A stretch of 64,000 nt of DNA from Desulfobulbaceae bacterium (GTDB lineage Bacteria; Desulfobacterota; Desulfobulbia; Desulfobulbales; Desulfobulbaceae). The notes below the pieces were generated by a model. The model ran no database searches. It had not been told where the DNA came from and was given only the letters and a program-made list of their open reading frames with translations. Positions 2,372 to 61,010 of the stretch are shown one piece after another. The stretch lies in the NCBI GenBank assembly GCA_003508005.1, contig DNUE01000016.1:24746-88745 (forward strand), read 5' to 3'. The position numbers and the translations under genes were made by a program. Each line of letters starts with the position of its first letter. Position 1 is the first letter of the stretch.

Positions 2372-2494
2372 ACCTGAAAGAAAACCCTGGGGTGTCAGTC
2401 GCTGCTCCTGCCGTGAAACCATAACCCGGCTAAAGCGTAATTTAGTATGATATACCTTCCGGGAAGGGCTTTCAAGCTATCTTTTATACAGGTT

Positions 2495-2528
2495 GGACAG
2501 AATTCGATCCCGTCCCTGAGACTATTTC
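2495..2528. repeat. left copy of a 34-bp inverted repeat flanking the primase-helicase-like gene
   Basis: GGACAGAATTCGATCCCGTCCCTGAGACTATTTC. Its reverse complement matches 4369..4402 at 28/34 positions without gaps. It overlaps the stop codon of the 590-aa gene. Confidence 0.7.
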
Positions 2529-4294
2529 TCCTCGAAGCCCCAGAAGGGATAATCGAGGCGGTAGTCGGCGACCTTGCCGGGGCTGTGTTCGCGGCTGGCC
2601 ACCAGCCAGAGACTGTTGATCCTCTGGTCCAGGGGTCCGGAGTCAAACGGATCCCATGCGGGGAGCAGGACCAGGGCATTGTCCGCCGAGTATTCAATAT
2701 CGCCGGTGCCTTTGAACGATCCCAGGTGGGGCTGGAGATCATATCTGTCGTCCTTCCCCCGCGAAAGTTCAGAAATGACCAGAAAAGACACGTTCAGTTC
2801 GTCGCGGATAGCCTCCAACTGCCGAAGCCAGGAGTCGATGCCGGTTCGCCGTTCCGTTAAGTCCTTGAAGGGGAGCTTATGCAGGCTGTCGATGATGACC
2901 ATGGTGTACTGGCTCTTGGTTTCATGGCGGATGAAATCGATATGGCGGCGCATGAGTTCCGGTGAGAGCTGGCGGTCGGTGACCACCCGGAACCAGGGCA
3001 GAAAACGGCGCAGTTCATCCTGGGAGGCCCGGAGGCGCGTGGTTTGTTCCTGATCCAGGCCGCTGCTCTGCAACTGTTCATTGGAGAGGCGGCTCATGCG
3101 GCACAGGGTGCGCTGGTAGATTTTCTGGCGGCCATTCTCGAAATCATAGTAGATGACCGGGATGTTGCGGCGGGCCATTTCCGTGGCCGTCTGAATAAAG
3201 AAACAGGACTTGCCGCTCTTGGGGGTGCCGCCGAGAATATTTATGCCGTGCATTCCCCCCAGTGCCCTGTCCAGGGCCGGAAAACCTGAGAGCATGGTCC
3301 GGTACTCGTCGCCGCCTTCATGCTGCAGTCGATCGTGGAACTGGAGGTATTCCTTCTCCGGCGAGGCAAAGGGCGAAAAGGCCCTGGCCTCCATTATCAT
3401 GCGGAAGGCGGTCTGCTGAAACACCTTCTGTTGATCAGTGGCGAGTAGGACCAGGGAAGAGTTTTTCTCCGTGTGGTCAGGCCAGCGGACAATCCTGGCC
3501 TTGAAACCCAGGTTCGTGGCGAGGGCACGGGCTGCCTGTTCCGAATCGGTGCTGTGATTGACCCAGAGGAAGACGGTGGAGAGCCAGCGGAAGGCGCCGG
3601 CCGGGAGTTTTTCAAGCGCCCCGGCCGAGTTCACGGCTACCCCGGGCAGACCCAGCTGCTTGATGGTCAGCAGATTGAATTCGTCCTCCACGATGATCAG
3701 GGAGCCGTTTTCGCAGCGGTCGATGTCTCCCCCGTTGAAAAGCATGACCCGGTCGGTCGTCACATCCTCGTTGCCGTACCAGAAACTGTCCTCGGGCCTG
3801 TCAGGATGGACGCAGCGGGCGACGTAGCAGTTGCCGTCCTCTTCTATGTAGGGGTAGACCAGATAGCGGCCGTTATAGCCGACCTGCATCTCCATTAATG
3901 TTTCCCGGGTGATTCCTGCCCTCTGAAAATAGGCGAATTGCTCCTCGGTCATCCTGCCCATGAAATCCAGTATTTCGGCATTGATGTTCTTGACCGGGAA
4001 TTCGACGCCGGCGGCCTCATATTCCCGGTCCGGGTCGTAGCCCGGGACGGACATCATGTTGAGAGCCCTGAGTCTTGCAAAATAAAGGGGAAAGCCGCCC
4101 GGGATACAGCGGTTCTGGCAGCGGAAATAGCCGTGAAAATAACTGTCAGGATTGAGAAAGATCAGGATCTGCCCGGCCTTGCCGCCAGATTTACCGGCGC
4201 AGAACGGGCAGGGGGCGGAAAGAATGTTGTTTTTCAGTTCACCGTCTGGTAACTGATTATGGTAGAATTCAGTAATGGCGTCGACTTTTTTCAT
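2522..4294 (-). CDS. primase-helicase-like protein (N-terminal Cys4 zinc ribbon, TOPRIM-like middle, DnaB-C/RecA-like P-loop ATPase); T7 gp4/Twinkle-like architecture
   Basis: CPFCAGK...FRCQNRC zinc-ribbon-like Cys pairs. LIIVEDEFNLLTIKQLGLPGVAV is a TOPRIM-like acidic strand, but no clear DxD motif is present. Walker A GGTPKSGKS, Walker B-like TMVIIDSLHKL, and SFLVISELSRG. Confidence 0.65.
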   Translation of the reverse strand: MKKVDAITEFYHNQLPDGELKNNILSAPCPFCAGKSGGKAGQILIFLNPDSYFHGYFRCQNRCIPGGFPLYFARLRALNMMSVPGYDPDREYEAAGVEFPVKNINAEILDFMGRMTEEQFAYFQRAGITRETLMEMQVGYNGRYLVYPYIEEDGNCYVARCVHPDRPEDSFWYGNEDVTTDRVMLFNGGDIDRCENGSLIIVEDEFNLLTIKQLGLPGVAVNSAGALEKLPAGAFRWLSTVFLWVNHSTDSEQAARALATNLGFKARIVRWPDHTEKNSSLVLLATDQQKVFQQTAFRMIMEARAFSPFASPEKEYLQFHDRLQHEGGDEYRTMLSGFPALDRALGGMHGINILGGTPKSGKSCFFIQTATEMARRNIPVIYYDFENGRQKIYQRTLCRMSRLSNEQLQSSGLDQEQTTRLRASQDELRRFLPWFRVVTDRQLSPELMRRHIDFIRHETKSQYTMVIIDSLHKLPFKDLTERRTGIDSWLRQLEAIRDELNVSFLVISELSRGKDDRYDLQPHLGSFKGTGDIEYSADNALVLLPAWDPFDSGPLDQRINSLWLVASREHSPGKVADYRLDYPFWGFEEK

Positions 4295-4368
4295 AGTGGC
4301 GGCAAAACTCCTTTGCTGGCGTTTAACCTGTTGTTTCTATTGAAACAGAAACGGGAGCGTACTTCAAC

Positions 4369-4402
4369 GAAATAGTCTCGGGGATAGAATTCAATTCTGT
4401 CC
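4369..4402. repeat. right copy of the 34-bp inverted repeat; contains a 25-nt palindrome centred on GAATTC
   Basis: GAAATAGTCTCGGGGATAGAATTCAATTCTGTCC. The internal palindrome GGGGATAGAATT-C-AATTCTGTCCCC spans 4380..4404 (11/12 arm match). It lies in the 147-bp divergent promoter region. Confidence 0.7.
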
Positions 4403-4441
4403 CCGACTTAACAGCGACTTAACAGGAGACAGGAGAGAAAT

Positions 4442-6859
4442 ATGACGGACTCCCCGATGTATGAAAAGCTCGATCTCTTCTACCTGGGGCGCGAGATGGA
4501 TCCCGCCACCGGCCAGACCATCTCTCTACCGTTCCTCTACAAGCACAGCCACATGACAACCCATGCCGCCATCATCGGTATGACCGGCAGCGGCAAAACC
4601 GGGCTGGGGATCTGTCTACTCGAGGAAGCGGCCATTGACCGGCTGCCGGCCATTGTCATTGACCCCAAGGGCGACATGGGCAATCTACTCCTGACCTTTC
4701 CCGATTTGCAACCAGAGGATTTTTTGCCTTGGGTTGACCAGGCACGGGCGGAGCAGAAAGGGGTAAGCAGGGAGGAACTTGCCCTGGAGACGGCAACGAC
4801 TTGGGAGAAGGGGCTTAAGAGCTGGGACCAGGACCGTGAGCGCATCGTCCGCCTGAAGGCAAATGCTGATTTTTCCCTGTTCACCCCGGGGAGCGAAGCC
4901 GGCCGGCCGGTTTCAGTGCTGGCGAGCCTGGAGGCGCCGGCCCCGCAACTCCTGGAGGACACCGCCACCGCGGCCAGTTTGGTAAATTCCACAGTTTCTT
5001 CCATTCTCGGCCTGGTGGGCATGCATGCTGACCCGCTGACCAGCAGGGAACACATATTGCTGTCTGCTATCATCCTGCAGCAGTGGCGGCAGCAGGCAGC
5101 CATCACCCTCGAGTCCCTGGTTGCCAGCGTGGTCACCCCGCCTTTTGCGCAGATCGGGGTCCTGCCCCTGGAGAGCTTCTATCCACAGAACAAGAGGATG
5201 GAACTGGCCATGCAGCTTAACAACATCCTCGCCAGTCCAGGGTTTGCCGCCTGGACCAAGGGCGAGCCCCTGCGCATCGACAGTCTTCTTTATACCGCGG
5301 AAGGCCGGCCCCGTATCTCCATCTTTTCCATAGCGCACCTGAGCGAGTCGGAACGGATGTTTTTCGTGACCATGCTTCTCGGCCGGCTGATCAGCTGGAT
5401 GCGGCGGCAGCCGGGCAGCAGCAGCCTGCGCTGCCTGCTGTACATGGATGAGATCTTCGGCTATTTCCCGCCGCTCGGCAACCCCCCCGCCAAGGCGCCA
5501 ATGCTGCTCCTGCTGAAGCAGGCCCGGGCCTACGGTCTCGGTATTGTCCTGGCTACCCAGAATCCCGTGGACCTCGATTACAAGGGGCTGGCCAATATCG
5601 GCACCTGGTTCATCGGCCGGCTGCAGACCAGGCAGGACCAGGACCGGGTCATGACAGGGTTGGCCGGCGGGAGCAACGCTCTGGCGGAAGAAGACATCCG
5701 GTTGCTCCTGGCAGGGCTTCGCGGCCGGACCTTCCTCGTGCATTCCGCCCACCTTGACCGCCCTGTGCTTTTTGAAACGCGCTGGGTCATGTCCTACCTG
5801 AAGGGTCCCATCGCCTTGAACGAAACAGCCAGTCTGGCCGCTTTTCCGCAGGACGCTACCGCGACGCCGGCTGCTGTGGCAGCGTCCGCGGATGCGCAGA
5901 CCGCTGCTGCACCTGGTGCTGGCGGTTTTTTGCTGACGCCGCCCCTGCTGCCTGCAGCTGTGCCGCAAAAATTTATGCCGTCGCCTCTTCCGGTGCAAGG
6001 GGTGCGCTATCAGCCCTTTTTTGCCGGTTCGGCCACCGTCAGGCTATTCAGCCAGGCCAGGGGTATTGATCAACTGTCCCCGGTCCGGCTCAAAATTCCC
6101 CTCGCCGGAACAAGTGAAGCTGCGGATTGGGCCGTTGCCGTTGATAATACGGTTTTTCCGGAATCGGTCACAACCATGCCGCCGGCCGGGGCGCAATATA
6201 ATTCCCTGCCCGCATGGATCATGGCGTTGAAAAACTTGCGCGGCCAGGAAAAGAGCCTTGCCGATTACCTGTATCAGACCAGGACCATGACCCTCCAACG
6301 GGTAGCCGCCCTCAAGCTCGAATCTGGGCCGGAGGAGACGGAGAGCGAGTTTCAGCAGCGGGTTGCTGACCGTCTGCGGTCCCTGAAAGAGGCGGAGGTG
6401 GAGAAAGTCAGGCAGCTCTACCAGGGCAGGGAGCAGGCTATAGTTCGCCGGCTGCAGAATGCACAGGCCCGGATGGAGAAGGAAAAGAGTGATGTGGCCA
6501 GCCGGGGCGTGGATACGGCCCTTTCCTTCGGGGTCGCGGTGCTTGGCGCCTTCTTTGGCCGCAAGGCGCTCTCAGTGACAACTGCCTCGCGTTCGGCCCA
6601 GGGGGTGCGCAGTGCGGGTCGGCTCATGAAGGAGAAGGGCGACGCACGCAGGGCAGTAGAGGAGGTTGCGCGGATCGAGGAAGAGATCGCCGCCCTGACA
6701 GCGGAACTGGAGGAAAAGATCGCGTCGGTGACCGGCCGCTTCGATCCATCCTTCTATCCGGTGGAAAAGGTGACAATCACCCCCCGCCGCAGCGATATCG
6801 CCGAGGTCCGGGTCTGGCTGCAGTGGGAGCCGGTGCTGGACCTGCCGGGACGGCAATGA
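4442..6859 (+). CDS. HerA/FtsK-like (DUF87/DUF853-type) P-loop NTPase with a long C-terminal coiled-coil/hydrophobic extension
   Basis: Walker A GMTGSGKTG followed by AIVIDPKGD. Walker B LLYMDEIFGYF. GLGIVLATQNPVDLD. The C-terminus is rich in E/R/K heptad-like sequence with the hydrophobic stretch ALSFGVAVLGAFFG. A good RBS (AGGAGA) is present. Confidence 0.7.
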   Translation: MTDSPMYEKLDLFYLGREMDPATGQTISLPFLYKHSHMTTHAAIIGMTGSGKTGLGICLLEEAAIDRLPAIVIDPKGDMGNLLLTFPDLQPEDFLPWVDQARAEQKGVSREELALETATTWEKGLKSWDQDRERIVRLKANADFSLFTPGSEAGRPVSVLASLEAPAPQLLEDTATAASLVNSTVSSILGLVGMHADPLTSREHILLSAIILQQWRQQAAITLESLVASVVTPPFAQIGVLPLESFYPQNKRMELAMQLNNILASPGFAAWTKGEPLRIDSLLYTAEGRPRISIFSIAHLSESERMFFVTMLLGRLISWMRRQPGSSSLRCLLYMDEIFGYFPPLGNPPAKAPMLLLLKQARAYGLGIVLATQNPVDLDYKGLANIGTWFIGRLQTRQDQDRVMTGLAGGSNALAEEDIRLLLAGLRGRTFLVHSAHLDRPVLFETRWVMSYLKGPIALNETASLAAFPQDATATPAAVAASADAQTAAAPGAGGFLLTPPLLPAAVPQKFMPSPLPVQGVRYQPFFAGSATVRLFSQARGIDQLSPVRLKIPLAGTSEAADWAVAVDNTVFPESVTTMPPAGAQYNSLPAWIMALKNLRGQEKSLADYLYQTRTMTLQRVAALKLESGPEETESEFQQRVADRLRSLKEAEVEKVRQLYQGREQAIVRRLQNAQARMEKEKSDVASRGVDTALSFGVAVLGAFFGRKALSVTTASRSAQGVRSAGRLMKEKGDARRAVEEVARIEEEIAALTAELEEKIASVTGRFDPSFYPVEKVTITPRRSDIAEVRVWLQWEPVLDLPGRQ

Positions 6860-10841: not shown

Positions 10842-10975
10842 GTGTTAAGCATCCCTGATCCGCCACCATAGGCGGTCTCATTTGAACTGCGGGCAACCGT
10901 ATTTCCCCTCGGCGTCGGGGGCGGAATTGCTATCGAGCGGTTTTGCGACCCCGATTCCGATACCGACGCCGACCC
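10842..10975 (-). repeat. long-arm member of the intergenic repeat family (hairpin 10909..10975 plus box 10842..10866)
   Basis: The minus strand reads CGGGGTCGGCGTCGGTATCGGAATCGGGGTCG-CAAAAC-CGCTCGATAGCAATTCCGCCCCCGACGCCGAGGGG, then GTGGCGGATCAGGGATGCTTAACAC. It shares GTCGGTATCGGAATCGG with 16866..16883 and 16960..16985. Confidence 0.6.
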
Positions 10976-11012
10976 CGATATCAACTCACGAAGGTCAAAG
11001 CTATCATCAGCC

Positions 11013-12079: not shown

Positions 12080-12119
12080 TAATTGTCAGATTCGCAAGAA
12101 GAACGTCGCTGACGCCGGC
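12080..12119 (+). repeat. hairpin-module copy of the intergenic repeat family
   Basis: TAATTGTCAGATTCGCAAGAAGAACGTCGCTGACGCCGGC. The TAATTGTCAG and CTGACGCCGGC ends match the copy at minus 32080..32041. Confidence 0.55.
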
Positions 12120-12385
12120 AGCGTCTGCACCATTTTCAGCGTCTTCGACAAATTGCGTAAACAGCTTCGAATAAAAACAGTTTGGAGGGAAAATGTCAAT
12201 AAAAAATTGTCTCTATTTTCCAGCGGTCCTTGATAAAATAACCAGAGGAACGGAGAAGGGTTGCGAATATCGCTGAAGAAGAATATGATTAGAGTAATAT
12301 TATTCGGAAAATTTTAGTCATGATCGCCGTTTCCCTTGCCAGGGAACGGGATGCCTTGCAGGAGGATGCAGTGGCGAGAAAAGCG

Positions 12386-16854: not shown

Positions 16855-16989
16855 GTCGGGGTCGGGGTCGGTATCGGAATCGGTAGCGCAAATAGAGTTA
16901 TGTACTGTTGCCATCCATTTATTGATGCAATGATATTCGGTTAACGCCGGTTTACTTCTCGACCCCGATTCCGATACCGACTCCGACCC
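16855..16989. repeat. inverted-repeat member of the intergenic repeat family (arms of about 23-29 nt separated by about 76 nt)
   Basis: Left arm GTCGGGGTCGGGGTCGGTATCGGAATCGG (16855..16883). The reverse complement of the right arm (16960..16989) is GGGTCGGAGTCGGTATCGGAATCGGGGTCG, matching 22/23 in the core. The interior carries GCGCAAATAG and AACGCCGG, echoing the hairpin module. Confidence 0.65.
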
Positions 16990-17000
16990 TGATGGGATAA

Positions 17001-31974: not shown

Positions 31975-32095
31975 GATGTGTTCGCAAAAAGTAACAACAC
32001 TGAGCATCCGCCACTGAGATTTCAACAACTTACAAGGCTTGCCGGCGTCAGTTCCGCACTTTTTGCGGGACTGACAATTATCCGCACGTGACGAA
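31975..32095 (-). repeat. compact full-architecture copy of the intergenic repeat family (blocks B, C, D, E)
   Basis: The minus strand reads CGTCACGTGCGG, then TAATTGTCAG-TCCCGCAAAAAGTGCGGAA-CTGACGCCGGC, 24 nt, GTGGCGGATGCTCA (32014..32001), and TTTTTGCGAA (31990..31981). Confidence 0.65.
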
Positions 32096-33431: not shown

Positions 33432-33517
33432 TGCCTGACGCTTCGGGTGTTATTCGTGCCGGATACATTGAGTCAAGGCACCATCTGACCCTGAGCCGCT
33501 TTGAGTCATATGCTGCC

Positions 33518-33548
33518 GGAATCTTAATAACAGTAATGCAGACGCCGG
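33518..33548 (+). repeat. hairpin-module-derived copy (GGAATC-N12-ATGCAGACGCCGG)
   Basis: It shares the identical 13-mer ATGCAGACGCCGG and the identical GGAATC-N12 spacing with 60886..60916. Confidence 0.55.
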
Positions 33549-33620
33549 AAACTCTTTCCGCACGATGAGATACCGGGGCAGAGTGGTCATCACTGTTTTA
33601 TTATCAGCTGGCGTAGCATT

Positions 33621-39849: not shown

Positions 39850-40081
39850 CGCGCTGATCCTTTCTAATCTCGGTGGCACGGCTGTACTGGATACAAGCCG
39901 CGGTTTACAGAGTTTCTGGTTGAGGGGCCCGCATACAAAAGTCGGTTGTCAGGAAAAAAAGTTGCGCAAATAGCCCCACGAGCAGGTCGCAAAAGTCCTG
40001 GACACCAGGGCGTCCACACGGTGCGCCGCAGTGACGAATAATGCTGAATAATGTCACGGTTGGGGAGTTTTGGCGACGCCA
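39850..40081 (-). repeat. repeat-family element filling the ilvB-ilvN spacer (blocks A, B plus divergent tail)
   Basis: The minus strand reads TGGCGTCGCCAAAACTCCCCAAC (40081..40059), 21/23 identical to 60762..60784. GTCACTGCGGCG (40035..40024) is identical to 60825..60836, and the following ~40 nt are also alignable. Confidence 0.6.
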
Positions 40082-40083
40082 TT

Positions 40084-59500: not shown

Positions 59501-60761
59501 CCTGGCAGTGATCCTGTACCTGGCCAAGCAGGGGCCGACGCTGGTGGTCGCGCCGACCTCGGTGTGCATGAACTGGGAGCAGGAGATCATCCGTTTCGCA
59601 CCTACCCTCAACATCCAACTTCTCAGCGGGACCGGAAGAAAGGACCTGGTCGCCTCACTGAACAAGTTTGATATCCTGATCACCAGCTACACCTTGCTGC
59701 AGCAGGAAATCAAGCTGCTGGAGTCGGTCGAGTGGCAGTGCATTGTCCTGGACGAGGCACAGGCCATCAAAAATGCCGGCACCAAGCGCTCCCGGGCGGC
59801 TATGCGGCTCAAAGGCAGGTTTCGCCTGCTGACCACCGGAACGCCCATCGAGAACCATCTGGGTGAGCTGTGGAACCTGTTCCGCTTTATCAACCCAGGT
59901 CTGCTCGGCTCCTTCAAGCAGTTCAACGCCCGTTTCGGCATTCCCATTGAAAAGCATCAGGACCGGGATGCTCGTCGCAAACTGAAAAAGATCATCCGCC
60001 CCTTTATGCTGCGCCGGATCAAGGCCCAGGTTCTGGACGAGCTGCCGCCCCGCACCGAGGTATCCCTGCGGGTGGAGATGAAGCCCGAGGAAATGCATTT
60101 TTACGAGGCCCTGCGCCAGCAGGCCCTGGAAAACATCGAAGGAAGCATGGAAAAAACCGGCCGCCATCTGCAGATCCTGGCGGAGATCATGAAACTGCGC
60201 CGGGCCTGCTGCCACCCCAGGCTGATCGTGCCGGACATCGACATTTCCGCGGCCAAGATGGAGGTTTTTGCCGCGCTGGTGGATGAACTGCTGGCAAGCA
60301 GGCACAAGGCCCTGGTTTTCAGCCAGTTCACCGGCCACCTTTCCTTGATCAGGAAATATCTCGACGAAAAAGGGATCGTCTATAAATACCTGGACGGCAC
60401 CACGCCGACCAGGGAGCGGCAGCGCCAGGTGGAAACCTTCCAGGAAGGTGAAGGCGATCTGTTCCTGATCAGCCTGAAAGCAGGTGGGCTCGGACTCAAC
60501 CTGACCGCTGCCGATTATGTCATCCACATGGACCCCTGGTGGAATCCTGCGGTCGAGGACCAGGCAGCGGACCGGGCGCACCGGATTGGCCAGAAACGGC
60601 CTGTTACGGTCTACCGGCTGGTGACTGCCAATACCATCGAAGAAAAAATAGTCAAGCTGCACCAGGAGAAACGGGATCTGGCCAATTCGCTGCTCGAGGG
60701 CACCGATGTCAGCGCTCGGATCAGTGCCGACGAGCTGCTGGAACTGATCCGGGAAAAATGA
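56595..60761 (+). CDS. SNF2-family helicase/ATPase with an N-terminal region of about 900 aa and unknown function
   Basis: C-terminal SNF2_N plus helicase_C: LADDMGLGKT (motif I), VLDEAQAIKN (DEAQ box), TGTPIEN, and WWNPAVEDQAADRAHRIGQ (motif VI). Confidence 0.85.
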   Translation: MTDEHERNIPAGYLSFSPLEQALLLLVSVIYEPVATPFLFSCMAKADFGTLGTFRPTREELASALYRLREKHFLNENNRIPQPLVEYITRQAVRSGIFCQLSALVEKMAPVSYQDGKWSTRCRRAMRQFRIGIYNGDFEKIDEANAFLDEHCRSRLAGKAPAVLVAAESFDPQWFGALAGSLQFYLLEQVIRYSMNQLQHYPPVLSYLADESALTIGPDEQVPFHRLLAGYYLLEGRFTDLEALHARHPDSFHASGFSGTLAFLRGDTEQAHFLFREDLRQLHAYFGDRPAFFFGLPGLFCVFALLDRNRIEDRLLIKQDIAIALARYQGCPEEVPYLFIDALVSSLDSSLPDMKTLSERLQEDEAGLTRLIAVLCLCWMGVEIPDEFRKSLASVYERAAANGFAWLAMEAAILLGELEYEGQGAEYGRLGEEYRSRLGCRSIVSIIATERSWKHSLQELITLTSAVRSQKQTTRLVWLVQYAKGRLYFQPREQKRKADGTWSKGRSMALSRLIEQRDLDFLTTQDRRICAALHSLAEPPSKGSGYGFDPEIALPALIGHPLVFLEKSPQTPVEIIAGEPELLVEQQGDYLFIHFTQDIGEGKVIVWQETLTRFKVIRIDDNHRRIAGITGRKGLRVPISASSQVLDAIGRIGSFMTVHSSVGVDIGSQSVDSVEADSTIHLHFIPYGSGFRLEMFVKPFVDGGPYLKPGVGVANLLADVNGRRLQTRRNLRLEEEKAREIEESCPILDLAIDLEEGNVREWHLLDPEECLQALLELEEIRDKVVLEWPEGGRLSVRRQAGVNQLNLNIRTSQQDWFGISGRLAIDQDEVIELKTLLDSVKYSRSRFIPIGDSQFLALTQEFRKRLDELVLLAESREDGEGDEVFIHPLAALALDGLTREANTKADEGWKRRLRLVQESQALAPEVPSTLQAELRDYQYEGFVWMARLAHLGVGACLADDMGLGKTLQSLAVILYLAKQGPTLVVAPTSVCMNWEQEIIRFAPTLNIQLLSGTGRKDLVASLNKFDILITSYTLLQQEIKLLESVEWQCIVLDEAQAIKNAGTKRSRAAMRLKGRFRLLTTGTPIENHLGELWNLFRFINPGLLGSFKQFNARFGIPIEKHQDRDARRKLKKIIRPFMLRRIKAQVLDELPPRTEVSLRVEMKPEEMHFYEALRQQALENIEGSMEKTGRHLQILAEIMKLRRACCHPRLIVPDIDISAAKMEVFAALVDELLASRHKALVFSQFTGHLSLIRKYLDEKGIVYKYLDGTTPTRERQRQVETFQEGEGDLFLISLKAGGLGLNLTAADYVIHMDPWWNPAVEDQAADRAHRIGQKRPVTVYRLVTANTIEEKIVKLHQEKRDLANSLLEGTDVSARISADELLELIREK

Positions 60762-61010
60762 TGGTGTCGCAAAAACTCCCCAACTGAGGTGTCGGAGTCT
60801 ACGCTTACCTGTGCTTCTTCCTTTGTCACTGCGGCGTACAGGGTGTACGCTTCATTCCTCAGGATTTGCGCGCCTTGCATTTGACGGAATCGCAAAAAGG
60901 GCGATGCAGACGCCGGCAATCTAGGTAACTTATTGTATCCATTGTGGCGGATGCTCAATGTATTTATTCTATTACACTTTTATTTCATTGGGGTTTTTTG
61001 CATAGCCATC
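60762..61010 (+). repeat. most complete copy of the modular intergenic repeat family (blocks A-E)
   Basis: Block A is 60762..60784 and block B is 60825..60836. Block C is GGAATCGCAAAAAGGGCGATGCAGACGCCGGC (60886..60917). Block D is GTGGCGGATGCTCA (60944..60957). Block E, TTTTTGCA, lies near 60994..61001. Confidence 0.65.

Follow-up and report, generated by a model that had tools for sequence, protein, structure and literature searches.

A primase-helicase gene of a Desulfobulbaceae bacterium is probably flanked by two copies of a dispersed hairpin palindrome rather than carried by a cassette

We analyzed a 64,000-nucleotide (nt) stretch of the genome of a Desulfobulbaceae bacterium (assembly GCA_003508005.1, contig DNUE01000016.1, positions 24,746 to 88,745; hereafter the window), in which a gene for a homologue of the T7 gp4 and Twinkle primase-helicases is bracketed by a 34-nt inverted repeat. 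A first-pass annotation of this DNA had interpreted the arrangement as a single-gene cassette with transposon-like geometry. Our analysis leads to a different explanation: the inverted repeat probably consists of two copies of a dispersed hairpin palindrome, comparable to repetitive extragenic palindromes (REPs), miniature inverted-repeat transposable elements (MITEs) or Rickettsia palindromic elements (RPEs), and these copies flank a conserved chromosomal gene. The features of the locus are compiled in Table 1.

The sequence at 2495-2528 (GGACAGAATTCGATCCCGTCCCTGAGACTATTTC) is identical to the reverse complement of 4369-4402 (GGACAGAATTGAATTCTATCCCCGAGACTATTTC) at 28 of 34 positions without gaps, as originally reported. 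When the two intergenic stretches were randomized by shuffling (3000 rounds), no 34-mer pair matched at more than 24 positions, and the repeat is therefore not a product of chance. Two blocks, GGACAGAATT and GAGACTATTTC, match perfectly and are separated by a more variable stretch; the longest perfect blocks between the arms span just 10-11 nt. The outer end of the right arm had been misread; it is CAATTCTGTCC and not GAATTCTGTCC. The arms, spaced 1.84 kb apart, hold between them one open reading frame (ORF) of 590 amino acids (aa) on the minus strand (2522-4294), in line with the claim that they enclose a single gene. The enclosure is not clean, however, as the final 7 nt of the ORF lie within the left arm, which gives the ORF its TAG stop codon (2522-2524). 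No direct repeat was found outside 2495 or 4402, again as first described, and for the 3' insertion alone at most an AAA triplet could be duplicated.

The near-perfect palindrome noticed before in the right arm is present at 4380-4404, its own arms (4378-4391 and 4393-4406) being 93% complementary. Because the core of the right arm is palindromic, the two arms of the inverted repeat can also be aligned as a direct repeat (2495-2519 with 4382-4406, 80%), and the inverted orientation of the pair is defined solely by the 11-nt block GAGACTATTTC. On the plus strand the right copy, which lies 38 nt upstream of the ATG of the herA-like gene, folds at -22.8 kcal/mol (z = -4.6) with a 12-bp stem from the core, while the left copy forms a 9-bp stem including two G-U pairs on the minus strand, the sense strand of the gene.

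Table 1. Features of the primase-helicase locus in the window
Feature	Position	Strand	Description
Primase-helicase gene	2522..4294	-	590-aa gp4/Twinkle-like primase-helicase homologue; Cys4 zinc ribbon, TOPRIM-like region without conserved DxD, DnaB_C
Left arm of the inverted repeat	2495..2528	-	Decayed palindromic element (19/25 to family core) plus shared flank GAAATAGTCTC
Right arm of the inverted repeat	4369..4402	+	
Near-intact palindromic element	4374..4408	+	AGTCTC-GGGGATAGAATT-C-AATTCTGTCCCC-GACT; core 4380-4404
Tandem 11-bp duplication	4404..4425	+	CGACTTAACAG x2, perfect; abuts palindrome; part of lineage-specific segment 4374-4419
Conserved intergenic block	4295..4373	.	ATTTCGTTGAAGTAC...GTTTCTG.TTCAAT.GAAAC; kept in relatives
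HerA-like (DUF87) ATPase gene	4442..6859	+	805 aa; divergent from helicase gene
Extra 41-nt segment	2484..2524	-	Just upstream of xseB -35; supplies TAG 2522-2524
Sigma-70-like promoter of xseB-ispA-dxs	2447..2475	-	TTGAAA, 17-nt spacer, TATCAT; 10/12

The palindrome of the right arm, which reads GGGGAYAGAATT-N-AATTCTGTCCCC, belongs to a family with the 25-nt core GGGGACAGAATT-N-AATTCTGTCCCC. A scan of metagenome contigs with the pattern GGGAYAGAATTNAATTCTRTCCC (matching loci L020-L139) yielded at least 130 copies on at least 120 contigs, nearly all of them GGGGACAGAATT-N-AATTCTGTCCCC, where the chance expectation was far below 1. Among the matches listed, the flanks are unrelated (78 similarity groups, 60 of them singletons) and the GC content of the contigs ranges from 0.30 to 0.69; protein clusters at 90% identity or more assigned hosts in Nitrospirota (5 contigs), Gammaproteobacteria/Chromatiaceae (3), Desulfobulbales (1) and Desulfuromonadales (1). 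The classifiable intergenic copies listed lie between co-directional genes in 31 cases, convergent genes in 15 and divergent genes in 1, as judged by crude ORF calls. Intergenic copies in this list are mostly situated within 50 nt of a stop codon, and about a quarter of the copies listed cap longer, copy-specific stems, some with terminator-like A/T runs.

The stem is kept by double, compensatory changes in neighboring variants (GGGACGGAATTGAATTCCGTCCC, GGGACAGATTTGAAATCTGTCCC and GGGACAAAATTTAATTTTGTCCC). Between tuf, tRNA(Trp) and secE of gammaproteobacterial contigs, for instance, one locus is empty (L025), a second carries two perfect copies (L121) and in a third both of these places are taken by compensated variants (L123). 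Filled and empty orthologous sites can thus be compared for the window (with L016, L018 and L143) as well as for L121 and L123 (with L025). Other copies lie in frame within long real ORFs (L081:5358, L112:2340, L089:939, L028:1242, L058:1940, L115:2620), among them MetH-like, NuoG-like, glycosyltransferase and radical SAM genes, where the palindrome adds the peptide (L/V)GTE(L/F)NSVP in linker regions, the same peptide being given by either strand. In the linker of the Nitrospirota MetH-like protein, the peptide is intact or decaying in the closest homologues and missing from homologues of 79% identity or less.

Neither a target duplication around the 100 copies tested nor a GTAG or CGTC tag in the flank composition at the palindrome end was detected, the flanks showing just a weak R-T-T preference after CCCC / the stem. 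A BLAST search of the PLSDB plasmids gave no match and only a single one of 2.9 million viral contigs scanned matched, from which we conclude that the element is carried by neither plasmids nor phages. In an Rfam search of the window locus and 14 hairpin-bearing loci no family covered the hairpin. Literature searches with the DNA half-sites and the peptide GTELNSVP returned unrelated primer matches or nothing, with no description found, and the motif is not in the survey of GTAG/CGTC REPs (PMC3733652). ORF clustering of 120 palindrome loci revealed no protein family common to more than 6 loci. A consensus built from both arms in the window (AGTCTCRGGGAYRGRATYSAATTCTGTCC) had no match in the metagenome contigs, a collection apparently without this species. 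Taken together, the palindrome family may represent an undescribed hairpin that crosses phyla.

Several further arrangements were seen in the palindrome-bearing contigs. An HlyD-like gene (449 aa) at L134:2507-4000 is bracketed by inverted palindrome copies plus a 26-nt flank, so that single-gene bracketing arises repeatedly with this family. Three copies at L065:5015-5400 alternate with a GTAG-tagged REP-like hairpin (GTAGGTCGGATTAGGC...GCCGTAATCCGACA) in a mosaic resembling a bacterial interspersed mosaic element. In Nitrospirota contigs (L028:1200-1240, L042, L093) the palindrome is often accompanied, at a distance of about 10 nt, by a second, CCCCCCTTTAGGAAAGGGGGG-like one, which is also found in frame in the proteins P0282 and P0295 as ...PPF.KGG....

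The gene itself is found at the same locus in all 13 related lineages examined, with protein identities of 51-97%. Relatives at 76-97% identity keep the order asd-truA-maf-cNMP/PilZ-(herA-like, reversed)-gene-xseB-ispA-dxs; in the distant L003-L005 the position behind the cNMP/PilZ gene is retained, with herA-like and xseB genes not adjacent. The neighbors xseB and the HerA-like (DUF87) ATPase gene had been correctly named before, as had the native composition of the gene, whose GC content (0.56-0.60) is like that of its neighbors. By these sequence comparisons, the gene is vertically inherited and not part of a mobile cassette. In closer relatives the herA-like gene separates the cNMP/PilZ gene from the helicase gene; it is absent in L003-L005 and is therefore itself a variable insertion or loss at the locus.

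The state of each insertion site was read from an alignment of the two intergenic regions across the relatives together with a protein tree. Both arms were present in the window's species only, where they are 100% identical and in a single orientation in 6 independent assemblies, while both sites are empty in L016, L018, L142, L143, L001 and L002. A decayed copy of the window's hairpin element (21/25 to the core) occupies the 3' site, and only this site, in L017. Another repeat of about 125 nt (ATGGCGTCGCAAAAACTCCCCAAC...GCTTAGCCAT), unrelated to the hairpin, or an internally deleted remnant of it, is located upstream only in L015, L141 and L006; in L007 and L008 it is found at both sites in inverted orientation (31-32/34), with a 7-bp duplication, AAAGATA, at the 3' site. 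Two copies of this MITE-like repeat are present in the window as well, at 39966-40082 (minus strand) and 60761-60883 (plus strand). Both spots flanking the gene have therefore received insertions more than once and in independent events. It is probably only there that an insertion is tolerated, since the rest of both intergenic regions holds promoter and ribosome-binding signals.

The junctions define what was added in the window. At the ancestral 3' junction (...TTCGAGGAAAAGATAGGTTGAAAGC...), the -35 hexamer of the xseB promoter, TTGAAA, shares nucleotides with the TGA that ends the helicase gene, and hence L006, L016 and other relatives possess no true spacer there. This promoter is conserved in relatives (TTGAAA, 17 nt, TAYYAT) and stands directly downstream of the inserted segment. 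The segment replaces the last two codons, the ancestral protein ending in ...FEEKIG before the stop, and is absent from the empty 3' sites of L006, L015, L016, L018, L001, L002, L141 and L143. Ancestrally, the 5' intergenic region measures only about 100 nt, as in L016, L018 and L143. In the window, about 46 lineage-specific nt (4374-4419) between the end of the conserved block (...CTTCAACGAAAT) and the herA-like ribosome-binding site stand in place of an ancestral spacer of about 8 nt. The pentamer GAAAT (plus strand, 4369-4373) is ancestral sequence, yet it is counted within the right arm. The conserved block probably contains the divergent promoter region. A 10-bp tandem duplication in L017 (GCAATTTCGT x2) resembles that of the window and lies in the same intergenic region.

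A comparison of the two window copies shows that the right one has a single difference from the family core, and the left one (AGTCTC-AGGGACGGGATCGAATTCTGTCC) six, with the right-hand end missing. Both share AGTCTC, which is outside the family core, the shared flank amounting to 6-11 nt. Because of this common flank, one copy is most likely a local derivative of the other, or both stem from one genomic master. Each AGTCTC is preceded by GAAA(T), which pre-exists at both sites in relatives. A local event could have been a transposition or a template switch at the GAAA microhomology, and the data fit both alike. Scans of the 64-kb window tolerating mismatches and compensation revealed no additional copies above chance level. 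In either copy the substitutions amount to G-U pairs on the strand on which GAAATAGTCTC is read first and to mismatches on the opposite strand; the former is the sense strand of the herA-like gene for the right copy and of the helicase gene for the left one. These three changes hint at a constraint at the single-strand level.

According to our preferred explanation, two palindrome copies would have landed in two short permissive stretches on either side of the helicase gene, after which the left copy (2495-2524) would have decayed and the right copy (4374-4408) stayed near-intact. The inverted orientation would be a by-product, and the helicase gene is not mobilized by the repeats. The 3' copy, which supplies the TAG stop, would place a stem-loop in the sense RNA directly after the ORF and just upstream of the xseB promoter. 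REPs in E. coli act as 3'-end stabilizers or insulators, and by analogy the 3' stem-loop may stabilize the transcript end or shield the xseB promoter. We also considered that the 3' copy is a canonical intrinsic terminator and rejected this, as there is no U-tract and the terminator search gave no match. The 5' copy follows the conserved promoter block and precedes the herA-like ribosome-binding site, and would probably form a stem-loop in the 5' untranslated region of the herA-like gene. For the mobility of the element, the nearest known model is single-strand hairpin mobilization of the IS200/RAYT type, which may apply here by analogy.

Several observations weigh against this explanation. 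Only two copies, one intact and one decayed, exist in 64 kb, and both flank one gene; independent random insertion is unlikely, and therefore local copying or site preference must be assumed. No mobilizing enzyme was found, a motif scan of about 900 kb covering the window and the collected loci being negative for IS200/RAYT-like ORFs. The location of the upstream copy in a divergent promoter region is atypical, being shared by 1 of the 47 classifiable copies listed, and the positional statistics rest on crude ORF calls. In addition, two or three lineages have inverted copies of one repeat family on the two flanks. This pattern can be explained by chance or local hopping, and some selection for inverted repeats around the gene is also possible.

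A more specific proposal is that the palindrome is an undescribed hairpin that spreads horizontally, is moved by an enzyme not encoded nearby and was locally copied around this gene. We put this forward tentatively, as something the data permit without favoring. If true, a near-unchanged element would exist across Nitrospirota, Gammaproteobacteria and Desulfobacterota, settling after stop codons or in frame and keeping its stem by compensation.

Among the alternatives, we considered an origin of the left arm without transposition, in which replication would have switched templates at the GAAA microhomology and copied about 30 nt from the upstream hairpin region in inverted orientation. Hairpins promote template switching, GAAA(T) pre-exists at both junctions in relatives, the copies share a flank outside the family core, and no other copies exist within 64 kb. 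However, L017 carries an independent copy at the same 3' site and none upstream, and thus the 3' site can receive the element by itself. With 6 of the 34 positions differing between left and right arms, such an event would also need to be old, and the same data fit a local transposition. We therefore consider a template switch without transposition improbable.

About equally weak is the possibility, raised by the first-pass annotation, that the palindromes are paired operator sites, in this case of one transcription factor that co-regulates the herA-like/helicase and xseB promoters, possibly via DNA looping. Both copies do lie just upstream of promoter-like elements (the xseB -35 at 2475-2470 and the conserved block beside 4369), and from the GAATTC center of the decayed L017 copy to the xseB -35 there are 24 nt, as in the window. 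Relatives at 89-92% protein identity nevertheless lack the motif in their orthologous promoters, and the left copy has lost half of its palindrome. Moreover, the 25-mer is present in at least 120 unrelated contigs from several phyla, where it usually follows a stop codon or lies within an ORF, a divergent promoter region being a very rare exception. These findings disfavor the operator function, which we likewise consider improbable.

The cassette interpretation, in which the arms are terminal inverted repeats of a non-autonomous element moving the primase-helicase-like gene, fits the geometry of a 28/34 inverted repeat around exactly one gene. It also agrees with the frequency of gp4-like primase-helicases in phages and plasmids and with a match to the phage protein family PHROG 239. 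It is contradicted by the relatives: synteny comparison located the gene in place without the repeats at orthologous loci of close and distant relatives, 12 related lineages having it at the same locus without arms, and the empty sites are clean. The arms were gained independently of the gene and of each other, as L017 has the 3' copy alone, and their core is a dispersed palindrome known from unrelated contexts. In addition, the left arm overlaps the end of the ORF, no target duplication is apparent, no transposase or recombinase is present inside the interval or among the neighbors (xseB, DUF87/HerA-like), and the GC content is native. A mobile cassette is thus very unlikely, and with it a false lead is removed: neither a gene cassette nor a domesticated transposon is present here. 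As a cassette finding, the case is ordinary, with small dispersed repeats inserted at permissive sites, and it illustrates that inverted repeats around a gene can stem from independent small-repeat insertions at the sole permissive spots.

Hardly credible, finally, are recombination sites of an invertible segment or a long-range 5'-3' mRNA duplex, both of which the inverted orientation and the 1.84-kb spacing permit in principle, given that the perfect blocks are at most 10-11 nt long, that no recombinase gene is adjacent and all 6 assemblies of the species show one orientation with identical arms, and that the right arm is upstream of the conserved promoter block and so probably outside the helicase-gene transcript, for which reason the duplex was rejected.

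We return to the explanation by two inserted hairpin palindromes, under which the enclosed gene is a chromosomal gene in its own right. The architecture of the 590-aa protein as a primase-helicase, which had been proposed as gp4/Twinkle-type, is supported by several searches. Pfam matched DnaB_C at residues 336-542 (1.6e-26) and also AAA_25; the NCBIfam DnaB models matched only below their cut-offs, and DnaB chains in the PDB at 1e-13. PHROG 239 ('DNA primase/helicase') covers residues 16-543 (8e-22). The domain search, whose hits are DnaB_C/AAA_25, found no transposase domain in the protein. An AlphaFold model built from 19 homologues has a mean pLDDT of 75.5, and in a Foldseek search of the PDB this predicted structure was most similar to T7 gp4 (5ikn, 1q57 and 6n9x; E values 1e-18 to 1e-15) and Twinkle (7t8c) over 480-600 columns, with plain DnaB ranking behind both. 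The model thus supports a predicted central TOPRIM fold that is linked to the helicase in the manner of gp4.

Conservation among the homologues is consistent with this assignment. In the P-loop GGTPKSGKS, the residues G355, G356, P358, K359, G361, K362 and S363 are invariant and T357 and S360 vary, while C29, C32, C59 and C63 of the Cys4 zinc ribbon are invariant in 17-19 homologues. In the TOPRIM region E203 and E205 are conserved. The expected position of the DxD motif, by a correspondence to gp4 residues judged by eye, reads V-N/D-H/N-S and is variable among homologues; the earlier remark that this motif is not evident is borne out, and the doubt it cast on primase activity appears justified. 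Homologues of 60-92% identity are abundant in metagenome-assembled genomes and genomes of Desulfobulbaceae, including Candidatus Electrothrix and Electronema.

Two other repeats of the window concern neither the palindrome nor the gene. An intergenic family (...TGCCGGCGTCAG...) unrelated to the 34-nt arms occurs in both orientations at 31992-32080, 60882-60966, 12080-12120 and 33514-33551, and is probably the 'abundant intergenic family' mentioned in the first-pass annotation. A GAT/GAC-rich repeat (CGACCCCGATTCCGATACCGAC...) is present three times, also in both orientations (10942-10979, 16856-16892 and 16960-16993), and may be a coding repeat rich in Asp, Ser and Pro.

In comparison with known systems, the 590-aa protein has the same domain order as T7 gp4 and Twinkle, namely a zinc ribbon, a TOPRIM-like region and a superfamily 4 DnaB-type helicase. 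In contrast to these proteins, its gene is chromosomal, conserved throughout the family and syntenic in Desulfobulbaceae, and unlike in T7 gp4 the TOPRIM DxD positions are not conserved. Metazoan Twinkle is also reported to have lost conserved primase motifs. A gp4/Twinkle-like homologue with a degenerate TOPRIM region as a conserved chromosomal gene of Desulfobulbaceae, cable bacteria included, may merit specialist attention.

The palindrome shares features with three classes of repeats. REPs and REPINs are repetitive extragenic palindromes mobilized by RAYT transposases (PMC3116915, PMC3733652). Like them, the palindrome is short (25-37 nt), forms a stem-loop, is dispersed with unrelated flanks mostly downstream of genes, and sometimes occurs in clusters and pairs of slightly different variants (L043, L069, L119). 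The window copy moreover supplies a stop codon to the neighboring ORF, as GTAG REPs can do (PMC3733652). In contrast to REPs, it has no GTAG/CGTC tag and no RAYT in the motif-scanned window and loci, its core is identical across phyla where REP families are usually lineage-specific, and some copies are in frame inside genes. The small, non-coding MITEs, such as the ~125-nt family of L007, L008 and L015, are similar in their presence or absence at orthologous sites and in using the same permissive spots, whereas the hairpin element shows no target duplication and is conserved in its center and not at its ends. RPEs were reportedly described by Ogata et al. in 2000 as selfish palindromic DNA lying in frame in protein-coding genes of Rickettsia. 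Copies of our palindrome within real ORFs likewise leave the frame intact and add a short linker peptide, although the element is smaller (25 nt compared with 100-150 nt for RPEs), spread over several phyla and mostly intergenic. The palindrome therefore behaves partly like a REP, at gene 3' ends, and partly like the RPEs of Rickettsia, in frame, a combination that may merit the attention of specialists.

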